The notes: generated from the sequence alone by a model not told the origin. A stretch of DNA of 64,000 nt from a virus (IMGVR_UViG_2595698595_000001:128001-192000), one strand, 5' to 3'. Positions 3,606 through 31,284 are shown, counted from the stretch's first letter. Made by a program: numbers and translations.

Positions 3606-3634
3606 TGTAACTTTTTATCAATCTTTAGTACAAT
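3606..3634 (+). promoter_or_regulatory. phage early/middle-type promoter variant
   Basis: TGTAAC-N14-TAGTACAAT upstream of the glycosyltransferase cluster. Confidence 0.55.
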
Positions 3635-5995: not shown

Positions 5996-7228
5996 ATGAA
6001 TAAACCATTAATACTTAGAGAACTAATATTCCAACAATATTCTAGTTACGATAAGAACATCCAGATGTACAACATACATCTGGATGGTAACTTAAATGCT
6101 ACATTACATGCAATTTGTAACGATTTCAAAGTTATGACAAATGTAGCATTACATTTGAAACGTAATTTCCATCTAGAATATACAATCACTATTCCAAAGA
6201 ATACAAAACCTAATTCGTTAACATTGATTACTAATTTCGTAGAAGGTTTAGAAAAACTGATATCTAACGAAAACGTTTCATTATCCATCGTATTCAAAAA
6301 TATCAAATATAGAAACTCTGCTAAAGAAAATCGAGATAACGGTGAATGGATATTAGCAGATGGTATTAACGAAATCGATATTAACGAATTCGATTCTATA
6401 TCAACTAATTTCGAAAAATCTTTAGACTTAGTTAGTTCTTTCGAAGCTTTATACAATTGGAAATCTGAAGTATCTGAAGCTTTTAGAATCCTAGACATTA
6501 AGAAACGTAGATTCAGTTCTAGATTAAACGTTTCGTTACATTCTAAGGAAGATGAACGTGAATATCTTAAAGGTCTTGAGAAGAACTGTTCAACACTTTT
6601 CGCATTTTCAGATTCTGTGACATTACATAATCAAGCTCAATTAGATTACATAAAGAATTATTATGTTTCAGATACATATGATAAATTTAGACTTTTGAAT
6701 GGTAAAATAAACAAAGGTTTTAATGCTGAATTTATAGAATATCAAATGTCATTTTACAAATCTGTAAATACGATAAAGAAAAATCAATTGATTCAGTTCT
6801 TCGAAAACTATGATATAGAATACATATTTCCTTTTAGACTAACTGACCCGGATTGGGGATTTCAAAATCTTACTGATGAAGAGAAATCAAAAACTGTAGT
6901 AACTGATCCAACGAATTCGATACTATTAGTAACTGATGAAATACAAAAAGCTTTCATCGAATGTGTCAGAGGTTTGGATAAACGTACATTATTATTTACG
7001 TTATTCGATCTTATCAGAACTAAGAAAATAGATGTAAAGATTCCACTGTTTTCTAATCCTTTGAATATTTTACATCAGACAAGTATCGAAATACTTTATT
7101 TGATATACGATAATATCGATTTCAGATTCGATAAACATGATACTTTCGAAACTGACATTTACGATATGTTCTATGTAACTGGGAATACAACAAATTGGTT
7201 AAACAAAATAACAAAAACAAATGACTAA
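5996..7228 (+). CDS. putative nucleotide/DNA glycosyltransferase, RB69-like arabinosylation-cluster family
   Basis: LDGN, ITIPKN, FPFRLTD and VTDPTNS match, from memory, the gene next to the dCMP-modifying TS homolog in arabinosylating T4-like phages. Overlaps the TS-like gene. Confidence 0.5.
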   Translation: MNKPLILRELIFQQYSSYDKNIQMYNIHLDGNLNATLHAICNDFKVMTNVALHLKRNFHLEYTITIPKNTKPNSLTLITNFVEGLEKLISNENVSLSIVFKNIKYRNSAKENRDNGEWILADGINEIDINEFDSISTNFEKSLDLVSSFEALYNWKSEVSEAFRILDIKKRRFSSRLNVSLHSKEDEREYLKGLEKNCSTLFAFSDSVTLHNQAQLDYIKNYYVSDTYDKFRLLNGKINKGFNAEFIEYQMSFYKSVNTIKKNQLIQFFENYDIEYIFPFRLTDPDWGFQNLTDEEKSKTVVTDPTNSILLVTDEIQKAFIECVRGLDKRTLLFTLFDLIRTKKIDVKIPLFSNPLNILHQTSIEILYLIYDNIDFRFDKHDTFETDIYDMFYVTGNTTNWLNKITKTND

Positions 7229-7928
7229 AATACAAGATAAACAAGAATTCGATAGTTTAGATGAAGCTTATCTAACTTTACTAAAAAGTTTGATCGATTT
7301 AGAACCTAACGAATTAGGTGAACGTGAAATGTTTGGTATCGCTTTCGATATCAAAAATATTGATGAAACTGATCCTAAAACTAATTTCAGTAAAATCAAA
7401 GAACGTAATATCAATTTAGTATTTCAAAATGCTTTCGCTCGTTGGTTAATGTCAGGTTCTAATTCAGCTGATGAGCTTTTACCACTGAATAAACGAACTT
7501 CTCAGTTTAATGAAATCGAAGGTAGAAATCTTCTATATCCACCACGTATTCAGAATCAAATTTATGACATAGTTGATGAATTAACCGAAAATCCTATGTC
7601 AAGACGTGCTACATTATTGATACTTGACGAAAGGGATCAGATAGTTAGAAAAGAAAAACGTGAGAAATCTGATTGTAAGAAAGAATATCCTTGTACAATA
7701 GCATTACATTTCTTTATTCGTAATAACAGATTACATTCAAATGTTATGATGCGTTCTAATAATGCTGTTAAAACTATATGTTTCGATTTTTCTAATTTCG
7801 CTTTCGTACAAAATTGTATAGCTAGAGAATTAGATTTGAAAGCTGGAACTATGCATTATTACATATCAAATGCTCACATTTTACCTGAAGATTATGAACA
7901 TGCTTTAAAAATCTGTGAAGCTAACTAA
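7221..7928 (+). CDS. thymidylate-synthase-fold dCMP-modifying enzyme (gp42-like hydroxymethylase/hydroxylase)
   Basis: SRRA, catalytic PCT, FFIRNNRL, MRSNN, Asp at the cytosine-specificity position (ICFD), and NAHI. Confidence 0.85.
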   Translation: MTKIQDKQEFDSLDEAYLTLLKSLIDLEPNELGEREMFGIAFDIKNIDETDPKTNFSKIKERNINLVFQNAFARWLMSGSNSADELLPLNKRTSQFNEIEGRNLLYPPRIQNQIYDIVDELTENPMSRRATLLILDERDQIVRKEKREKSDCKKEYPCTIALHFFIRNNRLHSNVMMRSNNAVKTICFDFSNFAFVQNCIARELDLKAGTMHYYISNAHILPEDYEHALKICEAN

Positions 7929-7976
7929 GAAACATTCGAATTGAGTTTGGTAATATTATACCAAACTCAATTTAAC

Positions 7977-9134
7977 ATGGCTAGAATAATAAAACTAGCA
8001 ATAATTGGTAACAGTGAGTATAACGATTTCGATCAGTTTACGAATCAGGTTACTGATGTATTGCAAAAATTAAAGAACACTACAGAAGACGTTTTGATCG
8101 AATATCATTACGTATCGATTGGTAGTAAATTAGGTGAATTGTCGAAGAGATTTCTAAATGCTAACCCAAAGCAACTCTATTCATCTCATACTATTCAATA
8201 CAAGAATCTTAATGCTAAACCTTGTACTGTAAGAATAGATAAGAACGGTGATTCTTATAACAGTTTAGCTCCTTTAGCTACACTTATAAATCTAATGAAT
8301 GTAGCAGATTATGTAATAGCTTTCTGGAATGGTACTGAAAAAGATTCTTTCATAAAAAGGGCTTTGACTAAATTCAAATCGAAATATTCTAAGAATTCTG
8401 AATATCGACAAAGATTACGAATAGTAAAATTCGAATCAGCTTGGATGCAAGCAAAAGGTGATTATGTTAAAGACATAGATCAGAATAAGGATTCATTGTT
8501 TTCAAAAGATTCTAAAGAATCGTATGTAACGATTAAAACTAAATTGAATACTATCAATCAGTCAGGATTAACACATGACGAGATAAACAAAAAGTTCAAT
8601 GATGTTGTAAAGAATCTAACAATAACTACTGAATCGCATTTACATGGTCCTAACTTTAAAATGTTACATGGTAATGGATCGTTAGAAGGTAAGCATACTA
8701 TCAGAATAAGTGGAACTCTCAGAAAGACTATGAATATCGAAAATCTTAACGATAATAACATAGCAACTGTAGCCTTTTATCTACCTGTAAATGAATTTGC
8801 AGATTTACTAAAGTTCATAATTTGGTGTCATGAAAACATAAAGATTATGGATGTTTCAGAAACTACAGAACTTCATAATAACGATGCTATAAATCCTCAA
8901 TGGTCTTACATGAATCATAAGGGTGAAAGTGTACATTTCTGTTACTATGAACAGAAACTTCCTGAAGTATCTTTCCAAATGATTAAGATGTATTCGATAG
9001 TTAACAATGTATCATACGAACAATTCGTAAATCTTTCACAATGGGGATTGTTTAACGCTAAAGGTTCTATCGTTTTCAAAGCTAGGAAATACTTGGAATG
9101 TTTACATGATTTGAAACTTATCCAAAAAGATTAG
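7977..9134 (+). CDS. SLOG/YspA (DUF2493)-like domain fused to an unknown domain
   Basis: LAIIGNSEYNDF...ADYVIAFWNG. ATG 7977 preferred because a promoter-like box covers 7928-7956. Confidence 0.55.
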   Translation: MARIIKLAIIGNSEYNDFDQFTNQVTDVLQKLKNTTEDVLIEYHYVSIGSKLGELSKRFLNANPKQLYSSHTIQYKNLNAKPCTVRIDKNGDSYNSLAPLATLINLMNVADYVIAFWNGTEKDSFIKRALTKFKSKYSKNSEYRQRLRIVKFESAWMQAKGDYVKDIDQNKDSLFSKDSKESYVTIKTKLNTINQSGLTHDEINKKFNDVVKNLTITTESHLHGPNFKMLHGNGSLEGKHTIRISGTLRKTMNIENLNDNNIATVAFYLPVNEFADLLKFIIWCHENIKIMDVSETTELHNNDAINPQWSYMNHKGESVHFCYYEQKLPEVSFQMIKMYSIVNNVSYEQFVNLSQWGLFNAKGSIVFKARKYLECLHDLKLIQKD

Positions 9135-9165
9135 TACTTTATATTTAATCAAATACTTATACAAC

Positions 9166-9708
9166 ATGAAACATTTAATGACTATTTTCATGATGTTAAT
9201 AGTTTCATTAACGTCATGTAACAAAGAGGAAATCATAGAACCTGAACCACCAAAGAAAATCAAATACGAATTGTTTCTTTGGTCTCCCGCTAGAATGGAA
9301 ACTTATTTTCTGATACGAGATGATTCAGATAAGCAATATCAAAGTTTCTTAGATTACGCTGATTGGAATATGTTTGCAGGTCCTGAAGATCGTAATAAAT
9401 CTGAAATTACATTTTCAGGTGAAATGTTAGAATCTGAAACTTTAAGATTCCATTTACGTGGATTAGATTACGATTTAATGCCAATGGAATATAATTTCAA
9501 GGATTTCGTTTTAACTATAGACGATGAAATTGTTTATGTCGATAAAGGTATCAGAATACATGAAATTCAAATCATATATGAAGCTAAAACTGGTAAGGTT
9601 ACTGTAAACAAAAATACTAATTACGATAACGAATTACCACGTATTCCAGCTGACAGACTTGATAGCTATTATCGACCTAACTATACTATCAAAAGACCTA
9701 GAAATTAA
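9166..9708 (+). CDS. lipoprotein
   Basis: Signal peptide with lipobox LTSC followed by NKEE. Promoter TGAAAC-N14-TAGTACTTT at 9112. Confidence 0.7.
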   Translation: MKHLMTIFMMLIVSLTSCNKEEIIEPEPPKKIKYELFLWSPARMETYFLIRDDSDKQYQSFLDYADWNMFAGPEDRNKSEITFSGEMLESETLRFHLRGLDYDLMPMEYNFKDFVLTIDDEIVYVDKGIRIHEIQIIYEAKTGKVTVNKNTNYDNELPRIPADRLDSYYRPNYTIKRPRN

Positions 9709-9822: not shown

Positions 9823-10845
9823 ATGTCAAATATTAAACGTTCAGTTCTTGTAACTGGTGCTCTTGGATTCATTGGTTCTAATTTCGTTAGAACTATGGCA
9901 AAAAGATATCCAGATTACTTATTCATTCCACTTGATAATTTCGGATATGCTGCAAACCTGGAACATATCCCAGTCTTTGAAAAACTTACAAACGTTACAA
10001 AAGTTCAAGAAATAACTTTAGGTAGTTTCGATGAAGCTGAAAACTTTATTCTAGCTTCAATTTTCAAAACTTATGACATTGATACTGTGGTACATTTTGC
10101 TGCTGAATCACATGTCGATAATTCGATTTCTAATCCTGACATATTCGTTTTAGCTAATGTCAAAGGTACTGTCGATTTATTGAATGTTGCTAAGAATTAT
10201 TGGGCTGATCGTAAAGATGTAATATTCCATCATGTTTCAACCGATGAAGTATTTGGGGCTCTTGGAATGGAAGGTTCATTTAACGATGATTCTAATTACG
10301 ACCCACATTCACCTTATTCAGCTTCAAAAGCTGCAAGTGATATGTTCGTTAAAGCTTATGCTACGACTTACAATATGTTAGTATCGATTTCTAATTGTTC
10401 AAATAACTTCGGACCATATCAACACAAGGAAAAACTGATTCCAAAAGTTTTAGACGCAATTAAGAACAAAACTGAAATACCTCTTTACGGACATGGTCAA
10501 AATGTTAGAGATTGGTTACATGTTTTAGATCATAACGACGCTATAGATATGATTATCCATCATACTTTGAAATCTAAAGAATCTCGTAGAACTTGGTTAA
10601 TCGGTGGAGGTGTTGAATTAACAAATATAGAATTAATCGATAGACTAACAGAATCTGCTAATGAACATGATAATACATTTGATTATAAGTCATTGATTAA
10701 ATTCGTATCAGATCGTGCTGGTCATGATTTACGATATTCAATAGATTCTAGCACCTTACGTAAAGAACTTGAATGGAAGCCAAAATACGACATTACTAAA
10801 TGTATACCTTACATGATCGGAGAAACTTTAGGATTTACGAAATAA
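9823..10845 (+). CDS. rmlB: dTDP-glucose 4,6-dehydratase
   Basis: GALGFIG, HFAAESHVD, STDEVFG, YSASK, RDWLHV, DRAGHDLRY. Confidence 0.95.
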   Translation: MSNIKRSVLVTGALGFIGSNFVRTMAKRYPDYLFIPLDNFGYAANLEHIPVFEKLTNVTKVQEITLGSFDEAENFILASIFKTYDIDTVVHFAAESHVDNSISNPDIFVLANVKGTVDLLNVAKNYWADRKDVIFHHVSTDEVFGALGMEGSFNDDSNYDPHSPYSASKAASDMFVKAYATTYNMLVSISNCSNNFGPYQHKEKLIPKVLDAIKNKTEIPLYGHGQNVRDWLHVLDHNDAIDMIIHHTLKSKESRRTWLIGGGVELTNIELIDRLTESANEHDNTFDYKSLIKFVSDRAGHDLRYSIDSSTLRKELEWKPKYDITKCIPYMIGETLGFTK

Positions 10846-11417
10846 TGAAAAACATACCAGCAGGAATTGAAGGATGTATTTTTATACAGAATTCACAATT
10901 TAAAGATGAACGTGGATCGTTCAGAGAAACTTTCAGTAAAGAACGATTATCGTTCATATGTAAACATGAATTTGTTCAGGACAATGTTTCGATATCACAT
11001 AAGAATGTATTACGTGGAATGCATATTCAAACAGGTGATTCTGTACAAGGTAAACTTGTTACATGTCTTAAAGGTAGATTAATCGATTTAGTTGTAGACA
11101 TTCGTAAAGATTCTCTTACTTACGGTAAGACTATTACAGTATTACTACATGAACCAAATATGTCGTTATTTGTACCACGTGGTTGTCTACATGGATTCAT
11201 ATCATTAGAAGACGATACAATCATGCATTACAAATGTGATAACTATTATTCGAAAGAACATGAAGTATCTTATGACCCTTTAAGTTTACCGGAAAATATA
11301 TTCATACAAATCGAACAGGGTTTTAATATCGGTATAGACGATTTGATTATCAATTCTAAAGACAGAACTGGTAAAATGATCTATACTAACGAAGGAATTT
11401 TAAGTTCATTCATTTAA
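10845..11417 (+). CDS. rmlC: dTDP-4-dehydrorhamnose 3,5-epimerase
   Basis: DERGSFRE, FVQDNVS, LRGMH, QGKLV, HGF, YKC. ATG overlaps the rmlB stop (TAATG). Confidence 0.93.
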   Translation: MKNIPAGIEGCIFIQNSQFKDERGSFRETFSKERLSFICKHEFVQDNVSISHKNVLRGMHIQTGDSVQGKLVTCLKGRLIDLVVDIRKDSLTYGKTITVLLHEPNMSLFVPRGCLHGFISLEDDTIMHYKCDNYYSKEHEVSYDPLSLPENIFIQIEQGFNIGIDDLIINSKDRTGKMIYTNEGILSSFI

Positions 11418-11420
11418 CAT

Positions 11421-12302
11421 ATGCTTACAAGAAATAGAAAAGGAATTATTTTAGCAGGTGGGTCTGGGACCCGCTTGCATCCATTGACTATCAGTGTTTC
11501 GAAACAGTTATTACCTGTATACGATAAACCAATGATTTACTATCCATTGACAACTCTTATCGAAGCTGGTATAAACGAAATACTTATAATATCAACACCA
11601 CAGGATAGAAATTCTTTCGAGAACTTACTAGGTAACGGTTCACAATTTGGTGTTAGAATAGAATACGCTGTTCAAGAAAAACCTAATGGTTTAGCACAAG
11701 CTTTCGTTATCGGTGAAGAATTCATAGGTAAATCTAAAGTAGCTCTGATTTTAGGTGACAACATTTTCCATGCTTCTAATATAGATAGATTACTTATGGA
11801 AGCTAATATGTCTGATAAAAATACGATATTTGCATATCGTGTAAATGATCCTCAGAGATATGGTGTAGTTGAATTCGATGAATATGATAACGCTGTTTCG
11901 ATCGAAGAAAAACCTTTGAATCCTAAATCTAATTACGCAGTACCAGGCTTATATTTCTATAATAACGATGTTATCGAAGTAGCTAAGACTATCAAACCTT
12001 CAGCTCGTGGAGAATACGAAATATCAGATATTAACGCATATTACTTAGATAAGAATCAATTATCAGTTAAAGCTTTTGACAGAAGTGGTACTACATGGTT
12101 AGATACTGGTACTATTCAGTCTTTAGCTGAAGCTTCTTTATTTGTTGAAGTCATGCAAAATCGTACCGGTAATTTAATAGGTAGCCCCGAAGAAGCTGCA
12201 TTTAGACATGATGAAATATCTAAAGACTCATTAATTGAATCTGCTAAGAAATATGATAAGTCTGGTTATGGTGAGTATCTTTTGAAACTTGTACAGAAAT
12301 GA
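11421..12302 (+). CDS. rmlA: glucose-1-phosphate thymidylyltransferase
   Basis: GIILAGGSGTRLHP, SKQLLPVYDKPMIYYP, LGDNIF, EEKP, SARGEYEI, WLDTGT. Confidence 0.96.
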   Translation: MLTRNRKGIILAGGSGTRLHPLTISVSKQLLPVYDKPMIYYPLTTLIEAGINEILIISTPQDRNSFENLLGNGSQFGVRIEYAVQEKPNGLAQAFVIGEEFIGKSKVALILGDNIFHASNIDRLLMEANMSDKNTIFAYRVNDPQRYGVVEFDEYDNAVSIEEKPLNPKSNYAVPGLYFYNNDVIEVAKTIKPSARGEYEISDINAYYLDKNQLSVKAFDRSGTTWLDTGTIQSLAEASLFVEVMQNRTGNLIGSPEEAAFRHDEISKDSLIESAKKYDKSGYGEYLLKLVQK

Positions 12303-14375: not shown

Positions 14376-14417
14376 AAACCCATGTAACTGAAACTTACAT
14401 GGGTTTCGTAGTATAAT
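14376..14417 (+). promoter_or_regulatory. hairpin promoter cassette, type A
   Basis: AAACCCATGTAA-CTGAAAC-TTACATGGGTTT-CG-TAGTATAAT. Confidence 0.8.
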
Positions 14418-15244: not shown

Positions 15245-15805
15245 ATGAACATATTCTTCCTAGATAACGATGAAACTATTTCAGCTTCATTATATACTGA
15301 TAAGCATATTATCAAAATGATTACAGAAACTTGTCAGATGCTTTCAACTTACGCTCATGAGAAATTCGAAAATCATCCTGTAGAGCTTTACAAACCTACA
15401 CATCGTAATCATCCATGTACTAAATGGTTATTCGAATCAACTAATAACGTTATACGTTTATGTAATATCGGTATTGCATTAGTTTCTGAATATCATTACA
15501 GATTCGGTAAACTTAACAATTTCTATAAAGCTAAACAAATACTTCATTATGTTTCGTTTAGAATTCTAGATTGCAGTTTCGAACTAGGTACCGAATTACC
15601 CTGTGTTGTAGCTGAATATGATGAGAATCTTTCAGTTTTCGAAAATTACGAAAAGTATTACATTACTCACAAGTTACAAAATGCTAAGTTTACTAACAGA
15701 CGTGAGTCAGAATTACATTGGACTAATAAAGCTGTAACATATTACGGGCAACAAAAGATTAAGGAAATTCAACAGATACTTCAAATACCAATAGAAAGAT
15801 TTTAA
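15245..15805 (+). CDS. pyrimidine-dimer glycosylase/endonuclease V-related phage protein
   Basis: MNIFFLD, DKHIIKMITETCQMLST and YKPTHRNHPCTKW family signature. Confidence 0.7.
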   Translation: MNIFFLDNDETISASLYTDKHIIKMITETCQMLSTYAHEKFENHPVELYKPTHRNHPCTKWLFESTNNVIRLCNIGIALVSEYHYRFGKLNNFYKAKQILHYVSFRILDCSFELGTELPCVVAEYDENLSVFENYEKYYITHKLQNAKFTNRRESELHWTNKAVTYYGQQKIKEIQQILQIPIERF

Positions 15806-21215: not shown

Positions 21216-23090
21216 ATGCAATTCGAAAAACATTCTGTTCAATTTCTTATCGATCTTTACAACAATGCTAAAGAACAGTATTACAATACTGGAAATTCCC
21301 CACTTACCGATTCAGAATTCGATGAATTAGAGGATTATTTGCTATCTAATGAATACGTCGAGAAATATGTTGGTACTGAAGAAATCAAAGGTACTAAATC
21401 ACCTCATGTAACTCCAATGTTATCTCTTGACAAAGTTCAAGTATTTACTGATGGATTTGAAGGGCATCATTTCGATCATGTTCTTGCAGCTCTTGGTAGA
21501 TATGATCAATTTGTTACTCATAAACATGGTGATCATATGCTTCAAGCTTCATTTAAATTAGATGGTTTAGCTGCAAATATCACATATGCTGATGGAGTTC
21601 TTAAAACTATCGCAACACGTGGTAACGGTAAAATAGGTTCTGATATTACTGAAAAATGTAAACATTTAGTTCCAAACAAATTATCAACAAATTTCAGTGG
21701 TGAGGTTCGTGGTGAAATCTTTATCAAGAAATCTACATTCATTCAGAAATATTCTGAATACAAAAATCCAAGAAACTTAGCTGCCGGTATTGTTGGTCAA
21801 AACGATATCAAGGACCCAAGATTAAAAGATTTGAATATCTTCTTATTTGAAGTGAAAGGTTCGGTTAAGACTTTATTCGAAATCGTTGACTTACGTCCAT
21901 TGATAATCGATTCTATTTCGTTCTTCAATACATTCGATGAAATGTCGAAAGCTTATCATGAATTACTTGATAAACGTACAAATCTCGATTATCCAACAGA
22001 TGGTATCGTAATTAGATTATCAAGTGCTGTTGAACATCGTGATAATGGTTTAGCACCACTTTACTCAGTAGCTGTTAAATTCCCTCCAATGTTAGCAAGA
22101 ACTAAAATTGCTAAAATCTCATGGAATCTTCGTAAATCTGGAAAATTCATTCCACATGCAACATTAGAACCTGTAGAATTGGATGGAACTATCGTAACTC
22201 ATGCAGCTTTACATAACTATGGATGGGTTAATGAAAGAGGTTGTTGGGAAGGTGCTGAGGTTGTAATTGGTAAAAATGGTGACATCATTCCACAAATTCA
22301 ATCAGTAGTAACAAAATCAGAACCTTCTAATCTACCAGAAAATCATGTAATTTCTGATAACGGTCTTCATATGTTACCATCGGGTGATATGTCTGACGTT
22401 ATTAATCGCAACAAATTCGTTCAAGGTTTTTATACTTTAGGAATGTTTGGATTCGGTGGTGCTACATTCATCAAACTTTATGATTTGATGGAAGGTAAAA
22501 TCGAAAACATCTTTAACGATGATTTGTTTACTAAGAAAAATCTAGCACCAATACTAGGTTTAGGAATGACTGGTCCTAAATTCCTTAAGGAACGTCAACA
22601 TGTTTTAGTAAATATGAATCTTCCTAAGTTGCTATTAGCTATGCAATTCGATTCTTGTGGCTGGAGACATTGTTTGAAACTGTCTAAAGCGTATTCGAAA
22701 CCGGATGCTGAACTTGATACATCTGGATTAAATTCTAAAGTTGTATATTCAGTAACACAGGATCAAAACAATATCTATCGTATAACTTCAGCAATTCAAT
22801 TAGCGTTAAGAAACGGTATCGAACTTGAAGATATCGAAGAAAAAGTTATCGAAAAAGGTTCAGTTACTTTTGAAATGACTGGATCACCTAAATTAGCTGG
22901 ATTCAAATCTAAGGAAGCTTTCGTACAATATGTATCAACTTGGAATCATACGAAACTTAAGAAAGATACCACTTATCTGATAACAGATGATAAGGTTTCG
23001 AAAACTTCAAAAATGAAATTCGCGGACGCTAACAATGTAACAGTTTTAACTTACGAAGAAGCTGTAGCTAAATTTAAAGAATCTTTGTAA
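21216..23090 (+). CDS. ligA: NAD-dependent DNA ligase
   Basis: YYNTGNSPLTDSEFD (domain Ia), PMLSLDK, KLDGLA, TRGNG, EVRGE, NPRNLAAG, TDGIV, GDIIPQI, C-terminal BRCT. Confidence 0.95.
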   Translation: MQFEKHSVQFLIDLYNNAKEQYYNTGNSPLTDSEFDELEDYLLSNEYVEKYVGTEEIKGTKSPHVTPMLSLDKVQVFTDGFEGHHFDHVLAALGRYDQFVTHKHGDHMLQASFKLDGLAANITYADGVLKTIATRGNGKIGSDITEKCKHLVPNKLSTNFSGEVRGEIFIKKSTFIQKYSEYKNPRNLAAGIVGQNDIKDPRLKDLNIFLFEVKGSVKTLFEIVDLRPLIIDSISFFNTFDEMSKAYHELLDKRTNLDYPTDGIVIRLSSAVEHRDNGLAPLYSVAVKFPPMLARTKIAKISWNLRKSGKFIPHATLEPVELDGTIVTHAALHNYGWVNERGCWEGAEVVIGKNGDIIPQIQSVVTKSEPSNLPENHVISDNGLHMLPSGDMSDVINRNKFVQGFYTLGMFGFGGATFIKLYDLMEGKIENIFNDDLFTKKNLAPILGLGMTGPKFLKERQHVLVNMNLPKLLLAMQFDSCGWRHCLKLSKAYSKPDAELDTSGLNSKVVYSVTQDQNNIYRITSAIQLALRNGIELEDIEEKVIEKGSVTFEMTGSPKLAGFKSKEAFVQYVSTWNHTKLKKDTTYLITDDKVSKTSKMKFADANNVTVLTYEEAVAKFKESL

Positions 23091-24581: not shown

Positions 24582-25087
24582 TCTTTTTACTTATTTTACT
24601 TATTGTCGGAGCTATAGCTTCGTTAAACAGAAAATCAAATCCGTTCTATGGTAAACAGGAAGGTTTGTCAAGAATAGTTGGTGGTGCTTTTGTAGGGTTT
24701 CTATTATGGCTATTCATATTGAATCCAGTTTTAAGTATCGTTTCTAAAAATATCAAGTTTACAAAAACTAGTCAAATAGATTCGATACAAGCTATTACTG
24801 TTGATACTGATTTCGATACTTTCAAAATATCTTTAAAGGATTCTTCTTTACTAATGAATTCTAGTAGTCCAGCTTTATTCATAGTTAATGACAGTTTAAT
24901 CTTTGAAGGTGATACAATTATTAATATTTCCAAATTAGTGAAAGTTACTAGTAAGTCATCTAATAAACTACTTTATATCGATATGAACATTGTTCCAGAT
25001 TATGAAATACATCTAACTGAATCAGATTATTCGAAACTAAATCCAATGTATAGAAACGAATTCAGTCATATGTTTATCAGAAGATAA
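24578..25087 (+). CDS. membrane protein
   Basis: Two N-terminal hydrophobic segments. Confidence 0.55.
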   Translation: MIFLLILLIVGAIASLNRKSNPFYGKQEGLSRIVGGAFVGFLLWLFILNPVLSIVSKNIKFTKTSQIDSIQAITVDTDFDTFKISLKDSSLLMNSSSPALFIVNDSLIFEGDTIINISKLVKVTSKSSNKLLYIDMNIVPDYEIHLTESDYSKLNPMYRNEFSHMFIRR

Positions 25088-25151
25088 GGAAACGATAATA
25101 CATACTTAAGTAATATACATCTATATTTCAATTTCAAAACATAAGAAACGT

Positions 25152-25970
25152 ATGACCCAACGATTAGATAAATTTCTCTATAACGGAGAAGTATATGACA
25201 AAAAGAATCATTTCGTATTCACAACGATAGTTGATAGAAATGGATTCGCTTTGACAAAATATCCATTCATTCAAGAATACTTTACAAGAATTCATGACTT
25301 TATCAAAAATGACACTCAAATCATTTGCGATAGATACGCATTCGATGATTCGAAACTTCATGAAATTCTAACATCAAATTTCTTCAGAGTAGTACATTCT
25401 AAGAAAATACTAGAACATTGGAAAGACCCTGAAATGGAACGTGCTAGAGTTCCGAAAACTAATCATATGTTCTTCAAAAGTTTAGCAGGTGCTTTACATT
25501 CGACTGAAGAATATTTCGATGGAATCATTTGGTTCTTTGGTAATTTCAAAATGTTTGAAACTATAGCACCAATGATAAACCGAGTTTTTATCGTAAGACT
25601 TAACTGTGATTTTGGTGAATTATGTCCAGAACTTCTAGACATTGACGGTGTTTATGACGAACATCTTTTCAGTAGTTTCAATCTTACTCATAAGAAAATC
25701 ATGGAATCTGAACAATCCATCGAATGGGTTAAAACTATGAATAAACCTGTCGAAACTCGTGTAGAGGTTGTAAGTGAACATATGAAACTTGTAACTAAAG
25801 CTGCTGATGTTCGTGAAGAACGTAAAGACATTCCAATGTTTCATGATTATCAATTCGAAGAATATGCATTAACTTCTAAATTTAAATTGTCTCGTAAGAG
25901 ACAGAAAGAAGTTGAAGCTCGTAAAGAAGCAAAATTACATGAATCCGAAGAACTTCAAGAAATCGACTAA
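25152..25970 (+). CDS. hypothetical protein
   Basis: 272-aa ORF. Confidence 0.65.
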   Translation: MTQRLDKFLYNGEVYDKKNHFVFTTIVDRNGFALTKYPFIQEYFTRIHDFIKNDTQIICDRYAFDDSKLHEILTSNFFRVVHSKKILEHWKDPEMERARVPKTNHMFFKSLAGALHSTEEYFDGIIWFFGNFKMFETIAPMINRVFIVRLNCDFGELCPELLDIDGVYDEHLFSSFNLTHKKIMESEQSIEWVKTMNKPVETRVEVVSEHMKLVTKAADVREERKDIPMFHDYQFEEYALTSKFKLSRKRQKEVEARKEAKLHESEELQEID

Positions 25971-26024
25971 TAGTAAAGAACTATTAGTCTTCATAAATGG
26001 TAAAATCCAAATAATCAAAAACAA

Positions 26025-26744
26025 ATGAACAAACAAACTAATCTCCTGTTTGACGACAGACAAGACTTAGCTAAATCATTGGAACATAGACTGACCAATG
26101 TGAACAACCAACTTAACCAATTTGTAGCTGAATTCCGTAAACTTGTACAAGACCCGCAAAGTAATGTATTACACATGTTCGATATGATTATCAACAAAAA
26201 TGATAGAATCGATATCGATCATACAATCTATTTATGTGGTATCGGTAAGAACATTCCATCACTTCGTAAAGCTTCAGCAACTTTTAAATCGTTAGGTCTT
26301 AAATGTGAAGTACTTGACGCAGTTGATGCTTTACATGGTGATTTAGGTTGTATCAGGGATTATGATACTGTAATATTCTTTTCGAAATCTGGTAATACTT
26401 CAGAATTGTTAAGAACTATGCAATATTTAGATTCCATAAACACTGTAATTGATGGTGAAAGTTCTGTATCGAATAAATCTATTTGTATAGATATGTTTGC
26501 AGTTTCAATGAATAGCGAATTCGATTCAGGTTTTGAAAACTTCAAAACCATCAATCATGTAGTATTACCGAAAACCGGTGAAGCTGACGAATTCAATAAA
26601 GTCCCAACCACTTCACCGATAGCCTTCCAAATCTTCTTAGACATGTTAGCTTGTGAATATGCTTCTGTTTATGATTTGACTTTAGAAGATTTCGGTGGTA
26701 ATCACCCGGGTGGTGACATTGGAAAATTCATAAACAAAAACTAA
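26025..26744 (+). CDS. SIS-domain arabinose-5-phosphate isomerase (KdsD/GutQ-like, no CBS)
   Basis: GIGKN, DALHGDLG, SKSGNTSEL, PTTS, NHPGG. Confidence 0.88.
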   Translation: MNKQTNLLFDDRQDLAKSLEHRLTNVNNQLNQFVAEFRKLVQDPQSNVLHMFDMIINKNDRIDIDHTIYLCGIGKNIPSLRKASATFKSLGLKCEVLDAVDALHGDLGCIRDYDTVIFFSKSGNTSELLRTMQYLDSINTVIDGESSVSNKSICIDMFAVSMNSEFDSGFENFKTINHVVLPKTGEADEFNKVPTTSPIAFQIFLDMLACEYASVYDLTLEDFGGNHPGGDIGKFINKN

Positions 26745-26749
26745 ATACC

Positions 26750-26947
26750 ATGTCAACATTTTTAGAACGACTGATAACAGAACAAAAGGAATTGTCTGAA
26801 AAGATTTCTAAGCTTCATGATTATATTTCGAATAATTCACATTTCGAAACATTAACTGAAAGAAATCAAGAATTACTTGAAGATCAATACGAAACTATGA
26901 GTAATTACAATTCAATTCTTTTAGAACGAATCAAAATCAATCGTTAA
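26750..26947 (+). CDS. small helical phage protein (crAss001_48-like)
   Basis: F.ERL..E..EL..KI.KL...LL..Q...M..Y..IL.ERI pattern. Confidence 0.65.
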   Translation: MSTFLERLITEQKELSEKISKLHDYISNNSHFETLTERNQELLEDQYETMSNYNSILLERIKINR

Positions 26948-26950
26948 ATC

Positions 26951-26979
26951 AAAAGTCGTATCGAATAGATACGACTTTT
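26951..26979 (+). terminator. intrinsic terminator
   Basis: AAAAGTCGTATC-GAATA-GATACGACTTTT. Confidence 0.75.
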
Positions 26980-26993
26980 TCATTCTTTCAATT

Positions 26994-27416
26994 ATGAACA
27001 AATACGATTTCAATTGGGTAAGGGATGAATCCTTAGACACTTATGATGGTTATTATCATGCTTATATCGTTACTAGAAAGTTTGGAAACGTTAAAGCTAG
27101 ACTAGGAATAAATCTAGACCCTTACATGAATTGTTATGTTTCTTTAAGTAGTGGTAGGAAACGTAAGCAATTAAGTATTTACGAAGACAAACCTGAAAAG
27201 AATTCATGTGGAATCGAAATATTGATATGGACTAAGGAGGCTATGCTAGATTTCCCTATTTGGTTTAATGACCGTCATATCAATAAACTTAATTCTATGC
27301 TAGTTACAGGTTCTGATACTAGACGTTTCAAAATATACAAGCGTTATTTGATACCTCATGGATTCTATACACAAAAACAGCATGACGGTGGAATCTATCT
27401 GTTCAAGAAACTTTAG
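26994..27416 (+). CDS. hypothetical protein
   Basis: TTTCAATT-ATG; RRFKIYKRYL motif. Confidence 0.6.
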   Translation: MNKYDFNWVRDESLDTYDGYYHAYIVTRKFGNVKARLGINLDPYMNCYVSLSSGRKRKQLSIYEDKPEKNSCGIEILIWTKEAMLDFPIWFNDRHINKLNSMLVTGSDTRRFKIYKRYLIPHGFYTQKQHDGGIYLFKKL

Positions 27417-27434
27417 TCAGTTTCTTAGTAATAT
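27405..27434 (+). promoter_or_regulatory. promoter with short hairpin
   Basis: AGAAAC-N14-TAGTAATAT inside AAGAAACT-N6-AGTTTCTT. Confidence 0.55.
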
Positions 27435-27466
27435 TCAATTATAAAAACTTAACAAAAACAAATTTA

Positions 27467-29197
27467 ATGGAGCATGTAGTTATATTGGCTGGTGGTCTTG
27501 GTTCTAGACTTCATAAATTTACAGCTAATCTTTATCCTAAGATTTTGATTTCGATGGGTAACGAAACTATGTTAGACAAACTTGTAAATTACTATTCAGT
27601 TTACAAGGATTTGAAATCGTTTAACATTGTCGTTTCGACTGAAGAAAATCAAAGACTTATATCTAATTATCTGAATCGATATCATTCTAACGCTTTCGGA
27701 AAAAATACAAAAATCGATGTATTACTTTACAAAAAGTTAGATGGTTCTTTCAATACGATTTACAACCTATTCAAGGGTCAGGGATTGAAGAATGTAGTAT
27801 TCAATTGGTCTGATATCATTCCAACATCACATCTTCAGGTAACAAAATTATTGACTAACGAATTCAAGATAATTACTGATGTTCAAAAACGTCATAGGAT
27901 GGGTATCGAATTTAGACAAGGTACAAGAACTTATGAAGTTGTCAAATATTCGAAAGATGATATGAAGGGTAACATTCCAGGATATTTCTTTATAGGTGAT
28001 TTCGATAGTATATTCGATCATGTATTCGTTGATAACTTAAGACTATATCATAATCTGTCACCAGAAATAGATTTGATGGATGCTTTAGAAGCACAAATCG
28101 AAAAGAATAGATGTATAGTTTCAACTAATGAAATAGATTTTATCGATATCGGAGATGTTGAAAAATATGAAAAATACATGGAAACGATATCGTTAGAAAC
28201 TAGATATTTCAATAGTTTAGAAATTACTGAAAATACAGTTCGTAAGAAAGCTTTAAACGAAAAAGGTATGTCAGTAATCGATAATGAATTGAATTGGTAT
28301 TCTACAGTTGGTAGATTCTTTCCAGATACTAAAAATCGTCCAGCTATTCCAAGAATTTCTAATATTCAAAAGAATTATGATTATCCTCAAGGTGAACAGA
28401 AATTTCATTCTATTGAATTTTCAATGAATCGTATTGACGGTAAAACTGTTGACGAATATCTTTGGAACGATCCTTTAGAAATGTATAATGTATTACGTTT
28501 ATTTGATACTGAGATTTCTAAGTTTCATAATATCGAACAATCGAATAAACCTGAAAAACGTTGGAATGAACATCATATGCATGAATATTTCAAAGTTACA
28601 TATCAACGTTTAGATGAAATATTCTTCATGTTACAAGCTGATGTACATCATTTCAAAATCGGTGATAAGATTCATAGTTTCAAAGGTGATACTATTCATT
28701 TACTTGAACATACTATGAAATATCTTTATGACGCTTATTCTAAATCTGAAGCTAATGAATGGGGATTGATTCATGGTGACCCAAACACTTCTAACGTAAT
28801 GATTTCTAATGATGGTACCGAAATGTTCTTTATCGACCCAAGAGGATTATTCGGACATTCTTTGATGTTTGGTGATATTTATTACGATTGGGCTAAATTC
28901 ATATATGGACTTCAAGGTTATTCTAGATTCAATTTAGATAAGACTTTCGAATTACATTATGACGAACATAGTAAAACTATGCAAGTAGATTTCTTCAAAT
29001 ATGGAATCTATGATATCGATACAGTGTTACATACTGTAAAACAGATTAGACCTGATTTAGATATCAAGCGTTTACGTGTTATCGTTGGTTTGATTCATGT
29101 TAAATTAGCACAGTACATAAGAAACAATCCATCAAAAATGTACGCAACTTATTATTACGGTAAATACTTATTAGAAACAACCTTATCTGAAAAATAA
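27467..29197 (+). CDS. sugar-phosphate nucleotidyltransferase fused to an APH/choline-kinase-like domain
   Basis: N-terminal ILAGGLGSR..YPKIL and DIGD; C-terminal IHGDPNTSN, FIDPRG, YDWAK. Confidence 0.85.
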   Translation: MEHVVILAGGLGSRLHKFTANLYPKILISMGNETMLDKLVNYYSVYKDLKSFNIVVSTEENQRLISNYLNRYHSNAFGKNTKIDVLLYKKLDGSFNTIYNLFKGQGLKNVVFNWSDIIPTSHLQVTKLLTNEFKIITDVQKRHRMGIEFRQGTRTYEVVKYSKDDMKGNIPGYFFIGDFDSIFDHVFVDNLRLYHNLSPEIDLMDALEAQIEKNRCIVSTNEIDFIDIGDVEKYEKYMETISLETRYFNSLEITENTVRKKALNEKGMSVIDNELNWYSTVGRFFPDTKNRPAIPRISNIQKNYDYPQGEQKFHSIEFSMNRIDGKTVDEYLWNDPLEMYNVLRLFDTEISKFHNIEQSNKPEKRWNEHHMHEYFKVTYQRLDEIFFMLQADVHHFKIGDKIHSFKGDTIHLLEHTMKYLYDAYSKSEANEWGLIHGDPNTSNVMISNDGTEMFFIDPRGLFGHSLMFGDIYYDWAKFIYGLQGYSRFNLDKTFELHYDEHSKTMQVDFFKYGIYDIDTVLHTVKQIRPDLDIKRLRVIVGLIHVKLAQYIRNNPSKMYATYYYGKYLLETTLSEK

Positions 29198-30186
29198 TGA
29201 AATTTAAAGGAACTGACCAAAAAACTTCAAGACTGATATTCACCGACTTCGATGGTATCTTCAGTCATGATATGCAATACTCATATATTGACAGAACTAG
29301 TAACGGTCCTGAGAAAAATGCAAAAACTGTAGCATTCGGTATTCGTGATGTTGTTAAGATTCTGAATTACGCTGGTTTCGAAATTCATATTGTTTCGGGT
29401 GATTCTACAGAAAAAGGTCAAGCTTTAACTAAGAAGTTTTTACATAACATTCATGTGGAATCTGTAAACTTTGTACCAACCGATCAAAAACTTGATAGAA
29501 TTCTTGAACTAGCTAATGGTAGGGATTTCATCTGGATCGGTGAGGACTTGATTGACTTACAAATCAAGGAATTCGCCATGAATTACATAACTACCGATAA
29601 CGCTCCAAACATGTTGAAGGAATTAGCTGATGCTAACTTTAGACAAGATTATTTTTGGCACGATTTGTTATCATATTTAATGAAAACTAAAATCTTCAAT
29701 GTTGTTGACGAAGATACACATTGTCTGATAAAATACGCTTTACAGAAATACATCAAACCAGATTTCTTCAAGTTAGTAAGTTACGGATTGATTGATAAAA
29801 ACTATCTAATCGAATCCTTAGAAACATATCGAGGTGTTGAAGAACTTAACGAAATCAAAGTTAACGATATTGAAGACTTCATGGATAAGATAAAAACTAC
29901 AGAAGTTCTAAAAACTGTACCAGTCTTTGGTAAACTCGATTTGATTTCATCTATGAAAGTTTTAGTCAATAACATTTGTAAACATGAACTTAAGTTTGTA
30001 TATACTAAGAACGTTCATTTGTTTTCAGACACTGTAAATATCGGTGACATATTCGAAGTTCTTTCATCATTAAGATTTACAGAATCTTCTAACAGTTTCC
30101 ACGATTACTATATCTACGGATTTACAAAAATCGTAGAAGGTAAGATTGAAAACATGTTAAACGAGAAGTTAGGAGCTAAATTCTAG
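29197..30186 (+). CDS. HAD phosphatase (KdsC-like) with C-terminal extension
   Basis: FTDFDG, VSGD, K, IGEDLID; TAATG-coupled to the upstream gene. Confidence 0.75.
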   Translation: MKFKGTDQKTSRLIFTDFDGIFSHDMQYSYIDRTSNGPEKNAKTVAFGIRDVVKILNYAGFEIHIVSGDSTEKGQALTKKFLHNIHVESVNFVPTDQKLDRILELANGRDFIWIGEDLIDLQIKEFAMNYITTDNAPNMLKELADANFRQDYFWHDLLSYLMKTKIFNVVDEDTHCLIKYALQKYIKPDFFKLVSYGLIDKNYLIESLETYRGVEELNEIKVNDIEDFMDKIKTTEVLKTVPVFGKLDLISSMKVLVNNICKHELKFVYTKNVHLFSDTVNIGDIFEVLSSLRFTESSNSFHDYYIYGFTKIVEGKIENMLNEKLGAKF

Positions 30187-30236
30187 GAAACTATTATTAC
30201 AGTGTAGGTATTATACATATCTACTAATAATTAATT

Positions 30237-30262
30237 AGGGAGACATTTGATCTTGTCTCCCT
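30237..30262 (+). other. GC-rich hairpin in the leader of the glucosaminidase gene
   Basis: AGGGAGACA-TTTGATCT-TGTCTCCCT. Confidence 0.55.
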
Positions 30263-30287
30263 TCATGGTTTCACTAAAATAAAAATA

Positions 30288-30923
30288 ATGTTTAGTTCAA
30301 AAAATGAAAAATCAGATCAGAAACACCCAATCTTAAAATTAATCGAATCTATAAAGAAATTCTTTGATTTCGATACAGTACTGTCAATTATTATAATGGT
30401 ATTCATACTATGGTTACTATTAGCTTCTAAAGGTTCAGCAAAGGCTGAAATGCTGTCAACAGATTCTGATATTGTTGACGTAAATCTCCCAGAAAAATTC
30501 AATGAAAAATCTACTTCAAGTAAAATCAAGAACAAAGAGGATTTGTATGTTTACATGAAGAAAGCTGGAATTAAGTTTCCTGAGCTTGTATGGTCTCAAG
30601 CTATGATGGAATCTGCTTGGATGAATTCAGCAGTTTTTAATCGTTCTAATAATCTTTTTGGAATGAAGAAATCTGGAAAACGTGACCATTTACAAATACA
30701 TAAACGTAACGATTCTTATTCACATTTCGAAACAATCAAGAAGTGTGTATTAGATTACAAGTTACATCAAGAACAAGTTCTTAAAATCGAAAACATTAAA
30801 AACGAATCTCAATATATGAGAAGGTTAATCAAAACTGGTTATTGTCCTGATGAAGGATATGCTAGAAAGATATTAGCTATTCGTAAGAATACAGATTTTA
30901 ACGAATTGAAAAAATCTAGTTAG
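30288..30923 (+). CDS. membrane-anchored GH73 glucosaminidase-like peptidoglycan hydrolase
   Basis: N-terminal TM, SQAMMESAW (catalytic E), NNLFGMK, GYCPD.GY..KI. Confidence 0.75.
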   Translation: MFSSKNEKSDQKHPILKLIESIKKFFDFDTVLSIIIMVFILWLLLASKGSAKAEMLSTDSDIVDVNLPEKFNEKSTSSKIKNKEDLYVYMKKAGIKFPELVWSQAMMESAWMNSAVFNRSNNLFGMKKSGKRDHLQIHKRNDSYSHFETIKKCVLDYKLHQEQVLKIENIKNESQYMRRLIKTGYCPDEGYARKILAIRKNTDFNELKKSS

Positions 30924-30954
30924 TAATACATATTCAAATAAAAAATATACTATC

Positions 30955-31284
30955 ATGACCGAACAAGAAATTAATATTCGTATAGCTGAAGATAACAAGG
31001 TTATCAAACTTCAGGAAGAAACTGTAGAAACTCCAATCGTAAAGTATTACGAAGTTGTTAAAACTTCATGTAGTTCTGAGATTCTATTTTATGGTAATAA
31101 TCCAAAACTTAAAGAAGGTGATTTATTCGAATGTTCGAATTCTTTACAATCTAACGTGTTAGGTGTAAGTAAATGGTTACTACCGAATCATCTTGAATTT
31201 TCTGGATTGAATTCTATAGCTTTAGAATGCTGTCAAGAATTGACAGAAATGGAATACAAACAAAAATTAGCAAGACGTGATTAA
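30955..31284 (+). CDS. hypothetical protein
   Basis: ORF after AATACATA at 30925. Confidence 0.55.
   Translation: MTEQEINIRIAEDNKVIKLQEETVETPIVKYYEVVKTSCSSEILFYGNNPKLKEGDLFECSNSLQSNVLGVSKWLLPNHLEFSGLNSIALECCQELTEMEYKQKLARRD

Follow-up and report, generated by a model that had tools for sequence, protein, structure and literature searches.

A probable arabinose-donor locus for cytosine hypermodification in an uncultured jumbo phage

Background

Which sugar do the genes at positions 26025-30186 of a metagenomic phage sequence activate, and what is the product used for? The window analysed here, 64,000 nucleotides in length (IMGVR_UViG_2595698595_000001:128001-192000), is part of a metagenomic record of an uncultured virus with a genome of 219,372 bases (~219 kb) and 31% GC. 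The phage is an uncultured jumbo phage with Tenacibaculum and Chryseobacterium phages as its nearest isolates and, going by these, the host lineage is probably Bacteroidota. The initial annotation had placed an isomerase, a nucleotidyltransferase-kinase fusion and a phosphatase in this locus, together supplying NDP-D-arabinose to a transferase encoded at 5996. The locus probably supplies the sugar donor of a system for cytosine hypermodification, in which arabinose would be placed onto 5-hydroxycytosine through the products of the genes at 7221 and 5996.

Organization of the locus

The three open reading frames were all found where the initial annotation had put them, and every feature of the locus described below is on the plus strand. 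The isomerase gene (26025-26744) is separated by two small ORFs from the fusion gene (27467-29197), which is followed by the phosphatase gene (29197-30186). The first small ORF (26750-26947) belongs to the crAss001_48 family (PF21825, E 7e-20), is probably not a member of the pathway and has no similarity to the small ORF in the same place of Chryseobacterium phage MA9V-1. The second (26994-27416) encodes 140 amino acids and has no match in Pfam or PHROGs. A terminator-like hairpin between them (26951-26979), whose stem of 12 pairs runs into a T-rich tail, closes the isomerase unit. The two unrelated small ORFs and the hairpin thus divide the locus into at least two transcription units.

A phage promoter-like bipartite motif of the T-type (27409-27437; an AAC box followed by TTAGTA..AT) is located 42 nt upstream of the fusion start. 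It does match the type found in the glycosyltransferase cluster, as had been claimed, but the match is weak evidence since 25 of the 48 bipartite promoter-like sites in the whole genome are T-type. Downstream of the phosphatase gene, a second hairpin (30237-30262) is the likely end of the fusion-phosphatase unit.

The isomerase and the bifunctional enzyme

The first gene encodes a KdsD/GutQ-like D-arabinose-5-phosphate isomerase of 239 amino acids. An SIS domain is its sole Pfam content (PF01380, E 8e-7), its PHROG match is phrog_5670, 'arabinose 5-phosphate isomerase' (E 4e-79), and it is homologous to RB69 gp55 (30% identity, E 7e-16). The protein ends at the point where the CBS pair of E. 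coli KdsD would start, and K59, H88, E111, E152 and H193 of KdsD, which we take to be the catalytic residues, are all invariant in the alignment. Its description as a CBS-less KdsD-like enzyme was thereby borne out, and the reaction is probably identical to that of KdsD. Among 80 related viral loci, 69 have an SIS isomerase within 10 kb of the fusion; of the 68 isomerases with a gene of their own, 47 are encoded no more than 300 nt upstream of the fusion.

The fusion protein (576 amino acids) has an N-terminal sugar-1-phosphate nucleotidyltransferase and a C-terminal APH-like sugar kinase. Both halves of the proposed fusion were recovered, with Pfam (NTP_transferase and APH/EcKL kinase), with PHROGs (phrog_4098, E 2e-158) and with a profile search of the PDB, which gave nucleotidyltransferases and aminoglycoside kinases. 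Residues 251-573 are 29% identical to RB69 gp52 (E 4e-28) and residues 1-119 are 29% identical to RB69 gp53 (E 2e-11). The protein is therefore a single-polypeptide homolog of gp52:53 and of AfhE, the latter comparison being made through gp52 and gp53 as stand-ins for the AfhE of phage HY126. The motifs of nucleotidyltransferase and kinase, with G10, R14 and K25 as well as H436-G437-D438, N443 and D457, are invariant among 40 homologs. Relatives are found in 354 phage records, every one with less than 60% identity.

The arrangement had been likened to the ADP-heptose route of GmhA, HldE and GmhB, which has the same logic of an isomerase, a bifunctional kinase-nucleotidyltransferase and a phosphatase acting between both steps. 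HldE is a pair of sugar kinase and cytidylyltransferase, whereas the fusion protein combines an APH-like kinase with a nucleotidyltransferase of the PF00483 family. Pfam assigned NTP_transferase and APH/EcKL domains to the bifunctional enzyme and none of the HldE-type families, and the parallel holds as an analogy only.

The phosphatase

The third gene starts at the last base of the fusion stop codon (TAATG) and encodes 329 amino acids. Of the claim of a coupled HAD phosphatase, the stop overlap was seen and the HAD assignment is right for residues ~10-165, but the C-terminal ~160 residues fall outside the HAD domain. Pfam and PHROGs gave no HAD match for the protein. A profile of 29 relatives matched Kdo-8-phosphate phosphatases in the PDB (3n07, E 2e-15), and the top Foldseek matches of the structure model were KdsC/YrbI folds. 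The pLDDT of residues 11-160 was 76-96 per 10-residue block, mostly 85-96, and it was below 50 in most blocks after residue 185. In this KdsC-like (cap-less) domain D17, D19, K98, D117 and D120 are conserved, and the GDD-motif position is E116, in contrast to D in E. coli KdsC and most relatives. The protein has no similarity to RB69 gp51 (E 0.21); the slot of the small AfhF/gp51-type HAD phosphatase is filled by a KdsC-like HAD. The departure from the characterised AfhF/gp51 type, the E116 and the extra C-terminal part all count against the main reading.

Eleven related loci have a KdsC-like gene, and in 5 of them it likewise overlaps the fusion stop. A thymidylate-synthase homolog with N169 and D177 is found within 10 kb in 22 of the 80 related viral loci, and a phosphatase was identified in all 22 (18 gp51-like, 3 KdsC-like and 1 histidine phosphatase). 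The donor module is modular, with isomerase and fusion conserved and the phosphatase replaceable.

The synthase and the transferase

The gene at 7221-7928 (+) encodes a thymidylate-synthase homolog with E143, C146, N169 and D177 (E. coli ThyA numbering), as read from an alignment with E. coli ThyA, RB69 gp48 and PTm1 gp167. Its sequence matches in the PDB are the CMP hydroxymethylase MilA and 'thymidylate synthase' chains of 234-238 amino acids (9iqu/9iqc). The combination of Cys146, Asn169 and Asp177 is given as diagnostic of 5-hydroxy-dCMP synthases by Lee et al. (2026, PMC13326640). N169 and D177 in the 7221 protein point to 5-hydroxycytosine, and not hydroxymethylcytosine, as the probable modified base. 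A search of the phage genome for an accessory dCTPase of the MazG type, which would remove dCTP, with PF03819 as the single family, gave no matches.

The start of the synthase gene is overlapped by the gene at 5996-7228 (+), which by model and homology encodes a GT-B glycosyltransferase, the proposed user of NDP-arabinose. The model had a pLDDT of 87.9 and a pTM of 0.88, and Foldseek matched it to LmbT, HepE and MshA with probability 1.0. The protein is homologous to base-proximal transferases, namely the T4-like transferase adjoining the synthase and gp215 of Rhizobium phage RL38J1 (24% identity, E 3e-10). Among the deposited phages searched with tblastn, only the Rhizobium phages RL38J1, RL2RES and P9VFCI were found (6 records in all).

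In the window, ~19 kb separate this pair from the donor genes. In two related viral contigs, L006 and L009, a KdsC-like phosphatase and a 5996-type transferase form one polypeptide, with genes for a synthase, an isomerase and the fusion next to it. The L006 protein (7751-9379) is 34% identical to the window phosphatase in residues 5-153 (E 5e-20) and 24% identical to the transferase in residues 187-527, the C-terminal half (E 7e-20). The gene order in L006 is synthase, phosphatase::transferase, isomerase and fusion. The joined polypeptide ties the two distant loci of the window together, which backs the claim that the donor locus serves the transferase at 5996.

The fold and the homology do not fix the sugar of the 5996 transferase, because its family includes RL38J1 gp215, for which Lee et al. 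(2026, PMC13326640) give galactose as the sugar. RmlB, RmlC and RmlA (9823-12302) are encoded in the cluster that holds 5996 and 7221, and the transferase could thus take a dTDP-deoxyhexose instead; an RmlD-like frame is found at genome position 201976-202524. In addition, three ORFs of 385-397 amino acids, at 3657, 4835 and 7941, flank the pair. It is unlikely, though worth considering on these three grounds, that NDP-arabinose is made but that 5996 adds another sugar, such as a dTDP-6-deoxyhexose via Rml, with arabinose attached further out by another transferase or in a mixed glycan. In L006 and L009 the phosphatase of the arabinose route is joined to a transferase of the 5996 type, which argues against this, as does the occurrence of T4-like members of the 5996 family in arabinosylating phages, and a transferase identity could be shown for none of the three flanking ORFs.

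Proposed pathway and comparison with known systems

The route that we infer, predicted in every chemical step and also in its nucleotide, its acceptor and the sugar moved by 5996, would start from ribulose-5-phosphate of the host pentose-phosphate pool, which the isomerase at 26025 would convert to D-arabinose-5-phosphate. The kinase domain of the fusion protein (27467) would then add a phosphate at C1 to give arabinofuranose-1,5-bisphosphate, the KdsC-like HAD phosphatase (29197), coupled to the fusion in translation, would remove the 5-phosphate to give Ara1P, and the nucleotidyltransferase domain would form NDP-D-arabinofuranose from arabinofuranose-1-phosphate and an NTP, probably UTP. The thymidylate-synthase homolog at 7221, ~19 kb upstream, would make 5-hydroxy-dCMP and the GT-B transferase at 5996 would place the sugar on 5-hydroxycytosine. 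The modified phage DNA would be resistant to host nucleases.

The scheme of four steps, with isomerisation, C1-phosphorylation, dephosphorylation at C5 and nucleotidylation, agrees with the UDP-D-arabinofuranose route described by Lee et al. (2026, PMC13326640) in RB69 (gp55/gp52:53/gp51) and HY126 (AfhE/AfhF) and shared by DLP3, and the initial annotation is in essence supported. The window isomerase is homologous to gp55, and the fusion to gp52 and gp53. The pathway had been published before, and what the window holds is a variant of it. For the UDP-D-arabinofuranose route Lee et al. cite He et al. 2026 and Mahler et al. 2025.

Cytosine arabinosylation clusters are described for Escherichia phage RB69 (gp45-gp55), Acinetobacter phage DLP3 (gp76-gp83) and Escherichia phage HY126 (Afh genes) (PMC13326640). 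They share with the window an SIS-only isomerase, a nucleotidyltransferase::kinase fusion with a phosphatase directly after it, and an N169/D177 synthase homolog with a GT-B transferase alongside. Their phosphatase is of the 128-amino-acid gp51/AfhF type whereas that of the window is KdsC-like with an extra domain, and their genes form a single cluster whereas the donor genes of the window are 19 kb from the pair. The window further differs in having Rml genes in the transferase cluster and a host that is probably of Bacteroidota rather than Pseudomonadota, and the identities are just 24-30%. Phage RL38J1 also has a transferase adjacent to the synthase (gp215/gp216, the synthase being a verified 5-hydroxy-dCMP synthase) and hexosylated 5-hydroxycytosine; according to Lee et al., it uses galactose and glucose with a UDP-galactopyranose mutase and has no arabinose route, in contrast to the window (PMC13326640).

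The Flavobacteriia jumbo phages MA9V-1 and PTm1 have proteins with 27-40% identity to those of the window. Chryseobacterium phage MA9V-1 has the isomerase, two small ORFs and the fusion in the same layout, and a distant KdsC-like protein near its own synthase, but this synthase retains D169 and is thus hydroxymethylase-like. In Tenacibaculum phage PTm1 the genes for the fusion, the phosphatase and an N169/D177 synthase follow one another, the phosphatase being, unlike that of the window, an enzyme of the histidine-phosphatase family. The genes of these two phages are annotated as 'GlmU', 'guanylyltransferase', 'Kdo-8-P phosphatase' and 'histidine phosphatase'; the first three of these deposited labels are probably wrong for such genes.

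Alternative uses of the donor

The fusion family is not bound to the synthase/transferase pair, since 11 of the 20 large fusion-bearing viral records that have no synthase within 10 kb are without any thymidylate-synthase homolog; 7 of these 11 are at least 90% complete, and no N169-type synthase was found in any of the 20. Homologs thus do occur independently of the synthase and transferase genes in the family as a whole, while the instance in the window is tied to the pair. The arabinose pathway is used also without 5-hydroxycytosine. These records would suit a use of NDP-arabinose for virion proteins or a host surface polymer, of the kind proposed for giant viruses, and so would giant-virus bins in which fusion homologs of 848-912 amino acids have an attached HAD_2 phosphatase (in L053 also an SIS domain) and adjoin epimerases and fucosyl- or family-2 transferases. 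For the present phage such a target is quite improbable, as the genome has an N169/D177 synthase overlapping a transferase of a DNA-modifying family and relatives join a 5996-type transferase to the pathway phosphatase beside the synthase.

The E. coli Kdo enzymes KdsD and KdsC share the SIS catalytic residues and the HAD motifs and fold with the window proteins. The window differs from that pathway in having no CBS domains, no KdsA and no KdsB, and the predicted substrate of its phosphatase is, unlike that of KdsC, a pentose bisphosphate. The absence of kdsA (PF00793) and kdsB (PF02348), claimed for the window, extends to the whole 219,372-base phage record with no matches to either family, each of which was positive in 11 of 14 genomes in control searches. 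That the KdsD-like and KdsC-like proteins are auxiliary, boosting host Kdo for LPS or capsule with KdsA and KdsB of a Gram-negative host while the fusion activates an unrelated sugar, is most improbable given the lack of kdsA and kdsB in the phage, the translational coupling of the phosphatase to the AfhE homolog here and likewise in 5 related loci, the placement of the isomerase next to the fusion in 47 of the 68 loci where it has a gene of its own, and the joining of the phosphatase to a DNA-type transferase in relatives.

Discussion

Arabinose on phage cytosines is a recently described anti-defence trick, and the window most likely holds a version of it with a different phosphatase. A more tentative reading is that 5-hydroxycytosine bears a mixed glycan of D-arabinofuranose and a 6-deoxyhexose made by the phage's own Rml enzymes, and that at least six phosphatase lineages were recruited separately to the phosphatase step of the viral arabinose route (gp51-like, KdsC-like, HAD_2, PNKP-type HAD, class-B acid phosphatase-like and histidine phosphatase); we regard this as possible rather than probable. 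On this reading, the occasional joining of the KdsC-like version to the DNA transferase would hint that the donor is channelled to the enzyme that modifies the DNA. The Rml genes beside 5996 suggest DNA glycans that have not yet been described. The phosphatase::transferase fusions constitute a Rosetta-stone link by which DNA glycosyltransferases can be found in metagenomic data. The elucidation of arabinosylated 5-hydroxycytosine dates from no earlier than 2025-2026 and concerns solely T4-like phages of Proteobacteria. The instance in the window would carry the system into a very distant lineage of jumbo phages, probably infecting Bacteroidota as judged from the nearest isolates.

Genes of the proposed donor locus

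The three open reading frames that the initial annotation had placed at 26025..30186 are present as described according to ORF calling. The first (26025-26744, + strand) encodes a SIS-domain isomerase (PF01380) that matches phrog_5670, 'arabinose 5-phosphate isomerase', with an E-value of 4e-79 and the RB69 isomerase gp55 with 30% identity (E 7e-16). In the alignment with E. coli KdsD the protein ends ahead of the CBS pair, and K59, H88, E111, E152 and H193, which we take to be the catalytic residues of KdsD, are invariant. The second (27467-29197, + strand) is a fusion of a PF00483-type nucleotidyltransferase and an APH-like kinase, as identified with Pfam and with phrog_4098 (E 2e-158). In a profile of 40 fusion homologs, the first 220 positions match sugar-1-phosphate nucleotidyltransferases, whereas aminoglycoside kinases are matched by positions 233-410. 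The invariant residues are found in the glycine-rich loop (G10, R14, K25) and the kinase loop (H436, G437, D438, N443), together with D457. RB69 gp52 is matched by residues 251-573 (29%, E 4e-28) and RB69 gp53 by residues 1-119 (29%, E 2e-11); Lee et al. 2026 (PMC13326640) regard these two RB69 ORFs as a single gene that appears divided owing to a sequencing error. The isomerase and the fusion are separated by an ORF of the crAss001_48 family, a terminator-like hairpin, a 140-aa ORF without assignment and a promoter-like motif. The small ORF at 26750 has no similarity to the ORF in the equivalent position of phage MA9V-1.

The RB69 isomerase and fusion (ORF53_52c) were put forward by Thomas et al. 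2018 (PMC6024577) as candidates for UDP-arabinose synthesis. Lee et al. 2026 (PMC13326640) show that the DNA of RB69 and DLP3 bears arabinosylated 5-hydroxycytosine and that 5-hydroxy-dCMP is made by a thymidylate-synthase homolog. They also report that the HY126 counterparts of the fusion and the phosphatase, AfhE and AfhF, were characterised by He et al. 2026, AfhE acting both as an arabinose-5-phosphate kinase and as a UDP-arabinose pyrophosphorylase and AfhF being a Mg-dependent phosphatase acting between these two steps. The four-step NDP-pentose scheme claimed for the window is the same as this RB69/HY126 arabinose pathway, and the interpretation of the locus as an arabinose-donor route is supported.

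The phosphatase

The phosphatase gene (29197-30186, + strand) starts at the last base of the fusion stop codon. Pfam and PHROGs searches with the protein gave no match and a word-indexed search returned only two near homologs; against 1.84 billion representatives there were 35 matches, including itself, at E <= 0.001. A profile built from 30 of the 35 matched Kdo-8-P phosphatases, with an E-value of 2e-15 for 3n07 and of 6e-10 for E. coli YrbI. The structure model is confident at residues 11-160 (pLDDT 76-96 per 10-residue block) and is closest in structure to KdsC/YrbI and KDN-9-P phosphatases. The HAD residues D17, D19, K98, D117 and D120 are retained, while E116 occupies the position of an aspartate in E. 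coli KdsC and most relatives. About 160 C-terminal residues are modelled with low confidence; for this part the hhalign probability with the transferase profile was 0.2 and an Atlas search gave no usable match. A Vp25 capsid match of the protein was weak, below the cut-off and judged to be due to chance. The histidine phosphatase of phage PTm1 was rejected as a relative, having no similarity to the window protein.

Transferase and synthase

The transferase gene (5996-7228, + strand) overlaps the synthase gene (7221-7928), about 19 kb upstream of the donor locus. Aligned to E. coli ThyA, the synthase retains C146 and has D169 replaced by N and N177 by D, a pattern (C146, N169, D177) shared by RB69 gp48 and PTm1 gp167. 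Its PDB sequence matches include the 234-238-aa 'thymidylate synthase' chains 9iqu and 9iqc (E 1e-14), which may be the HY126 enzyme. Lee et al. 2026 (PMC13326640) take the D169N substitution as diagnostic of 5-hydroxy-dCMP synthases.

The transferase model is a GT-B enzyme (pLDDT 87.9) with LmbT (8ixp), HepE and MshA (3c4q) as top structure matches, each at a probability of 1.0 and with TM-scores in the range 0.4-0.5. Lee et al. 2026 (PMC13326640) list 8ixp for RL38J1 gp215 and 3c4q for RB69 gp46:47. Among deposited phages, tblastn with the transferase matched the RL38J1 group only (6 records, E ~2e-3), and the pairwise comparison with gp215 gave an E-value of 3e-10. RL38J1 gp215 adjoins the verified synthase gp216 and matches 295-314-aa transferases beside the synthase in T4-like loci.

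The transferase/synthase pair is flanked by two adjacent paralogs (3657-4832 and 4835-5992; 34% identity, E 5e-55), both matching phrog_32512, which has no assigned function (E ~1e-215 to 1e-225), and by a 397-aa ORF (7941-9134). These three ORFs gave no similarity to RB69 gp3 and no PDB sequence match, and are therefore not called transferases. ORF 9166 has no similarity to the nucleotide kinases RB69 gp45 and RL38J1 gp214. A weak thymidylate-kinase-like match (E 1.6e-4) at G000:C1:125590-125670 of the phage genome, 2.4 kb ahead of the window, falls in a 213-aa frame and is a candidate for an extra nucleotide kinase of the kind found beside the RB69, DLP3 and RL38J1 synthases.

Homologs of RmlB, RmlC and RmlA, at 9823-12302, belong to the cluster that holds the transferase and the synthase, and an RmlD-like 444-aa frame is found at about 202 kb, outside the window (G000:C1:201976-202524). 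It may thus be that the phage produces a dTDP-6-deoxyhexose as well, which could be another sugar for its DNA.

Related loci

The alignment of 40 fusion homologs retrieved 162 relatives in viral contigs, from which 80 loci were kept; the alignment was needed, since the same scan with the single fusion protein as query found no relatives. Domain-limited profiles were used for the isomerase, phosphatase and transferase counts. Iterative HMMs of the phosphatase and of the transferase ended with an identical set of 29 ORFs, owing to phosphatase-transferase fusions, and an iterative isomerase HMM drifted, taking in all 80 fusion proteins.

A SIS isomerase is found within 10 kb of the fusion in 69 of the 80 loci, as a separate gene in 68 and fused in one, and 47 of the 68 separate genes lie at most 300 nt upstream of the fusion. 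An N169/D177 thymidylate-synthase homolog is present within 10 kb in 22 of the 80, and two ORFs within this distance are of a second type (D169/N177). All 22 N169/D177 loci have an identified phosphatase (18 gp51-like, three KdsC-like and, in PTm1, one histidine phosphatase). The PTm1 protein, gp166 (L001:9559-10263), belongs to the histidine phosphatase family and sits between the fusion and the N169/D177 synthase; the deposited labels in this phage are 'guanylyltransferase' and 'histidine phosphatase'.

The link claimed between the donor locus and the transferase at 5996 is corroborated by L006 and L009, which rank first among the loci in identity of the fusion (33-34%). Each encodes a 542- or 551-aa protein in which a KdsC-like phosphatase is fused to a 5996-type transferase, and in L006 the gene order is synthase, 177-aa ORF, phosphatase-transferase, isomerase and fusion. 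By blastp the L006 protein matches the window phosphatase with 34% identity (E 5e-20) and the transferase with 24% identity (E 7e-20). These proteins are independent evidence that 29197 and 5996 serve a common process. For the transferase (40% identity) as for the fusion (43%), the closest relative lies on a contig of 68,591 bases, which suggests that the two are on one contig.

The phosphatases adjoining the fusion in other viral loci are of several types. The HADs among them are gp51-like, KdsC-like, of the HAD_2 family, PNKP-type (L007) or class-B acid-phosphatase-like (L060, L081), and PTm1 has its histidine phosphatase. Pfam was applied to 90 of the 134 candidate neighbour ORFs, near-duplicate loci being omitted. 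From their position we infer that all types serve one step.

The route without the synthase

The expectation that fusion homologs are tied to thymidylate-synthase genes fails as a strict link. Twenty large records were searched in which the fusion lacks a synthase within 10 kb. In 11 of them a thymidylate-synthase homolog is absent altogether, and seven of these 11 are at least 90% complete. Eight of the 20 carry a D143/D169/D177 synthase, hydroxymethylase-like in appearance, one has canonical ThyA only, and none has an N169 synthase. Isomerase, fusion and coupled KdsC-like phosphatase occur without a synthase homolog in L039, L041, L042 and L083 (records G010, G011, G012 and G019, three of which are 97-100% complete). 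Giant-virus bins encode 848-912-aa nucleotidyltransferase-kinase proteins with a fused HAD_2 phosphatase, in L053 also with a SIS domain, and cellular proteins of roughly 920 aa show the same fused arrangement. Hence the route predates 5-hydroxycytosine modification and extends beyond it, and it is only the local context that assigns the instance in the window to DNA.

Chryseobacterium phage MA9V-1 resembles the window in its isomerase, two small ORFs and fusion, with a KdsC-like protein also present. It differs in its 447-aa synthase homolog (L004:13259-14602), which has D169 and D177 and so is hydroxymethylase-like. Judged by these residues, MA9V-1 may arabinosylate hydroxymethylcytosine rather than hydroxycytosine.

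Genome and promoter-like motif

The viral record (219,372 bases, of which the window covers 128001-192000) is rated complete by CheckV and has a GC content of 31.3%, with 282 of the 285 called ORFs on the + strand. The locus gave no blastn match in 50,697 deposited phage genomes. At the protein level, Tenacibaculum phage pT24 and the Chryseobacterium phages MA9V-1 and MA9V-2 come nearest among isolates (about 30% identity in the NAD-dependent ligase), and the virus is an uncultured jumbo phage, probably of a Bacteroidota host. A DenV-like pyrimidine-dimer glycosylase (15245-15805) and the 624-aa NAD-dependent DNA ligase (21216-23090) are encoded between the two loci.

A phage-specific, promoter-like bipartite motif recurs in the genome, consisting of an AAC box, about 13 bases, G- or T-TAGTA and then ..AT. 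Its core has 86 copies, compared with a mean of 51 in 20 shuffles, and 55 of the 86 lie 15-120 nt ahead of a + strand start. The AC box is present in 48 sites, 25 T-type and 23 G-type. T-type sites precede the fusion (27425) and occur in the transferase cluster at 3625, 9131, 9791 and 12344, and at 5979 without the box; G-type sites are found for example at 14408, 18774, 21172 and 31979. The proposed match in promoter type between the fusion and the transferase cluster thus holds in that both have the T-type, but this type is common to about two dozen other genes. Sigma-70-type promoters show no excess over chance in 25000-31000 (29, 34.2 expected). The G-type motif is usually preceded by a GAGGGTTTCG stem resembling the 3' half of a terminator hairpin. 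Intergenic DNA is strongly enriched in the decamer TTATACATAT, one copy (30211-30220) lying between the phosphatase gene and the following hairpin, and 37 of the 50 copies of its 8-mer core, TATACATA, fall in the genome's 12 kb between genes.

Overall, this is a published system in a variant form and not one of a new kind. Distinctive here are the KdsC-type phosphatase with its extra domain, the division between two loci, in which MA9V-1 is alike, the phosphatase-transferase fusions of relatives and the Rml genes adjoining the transferase.
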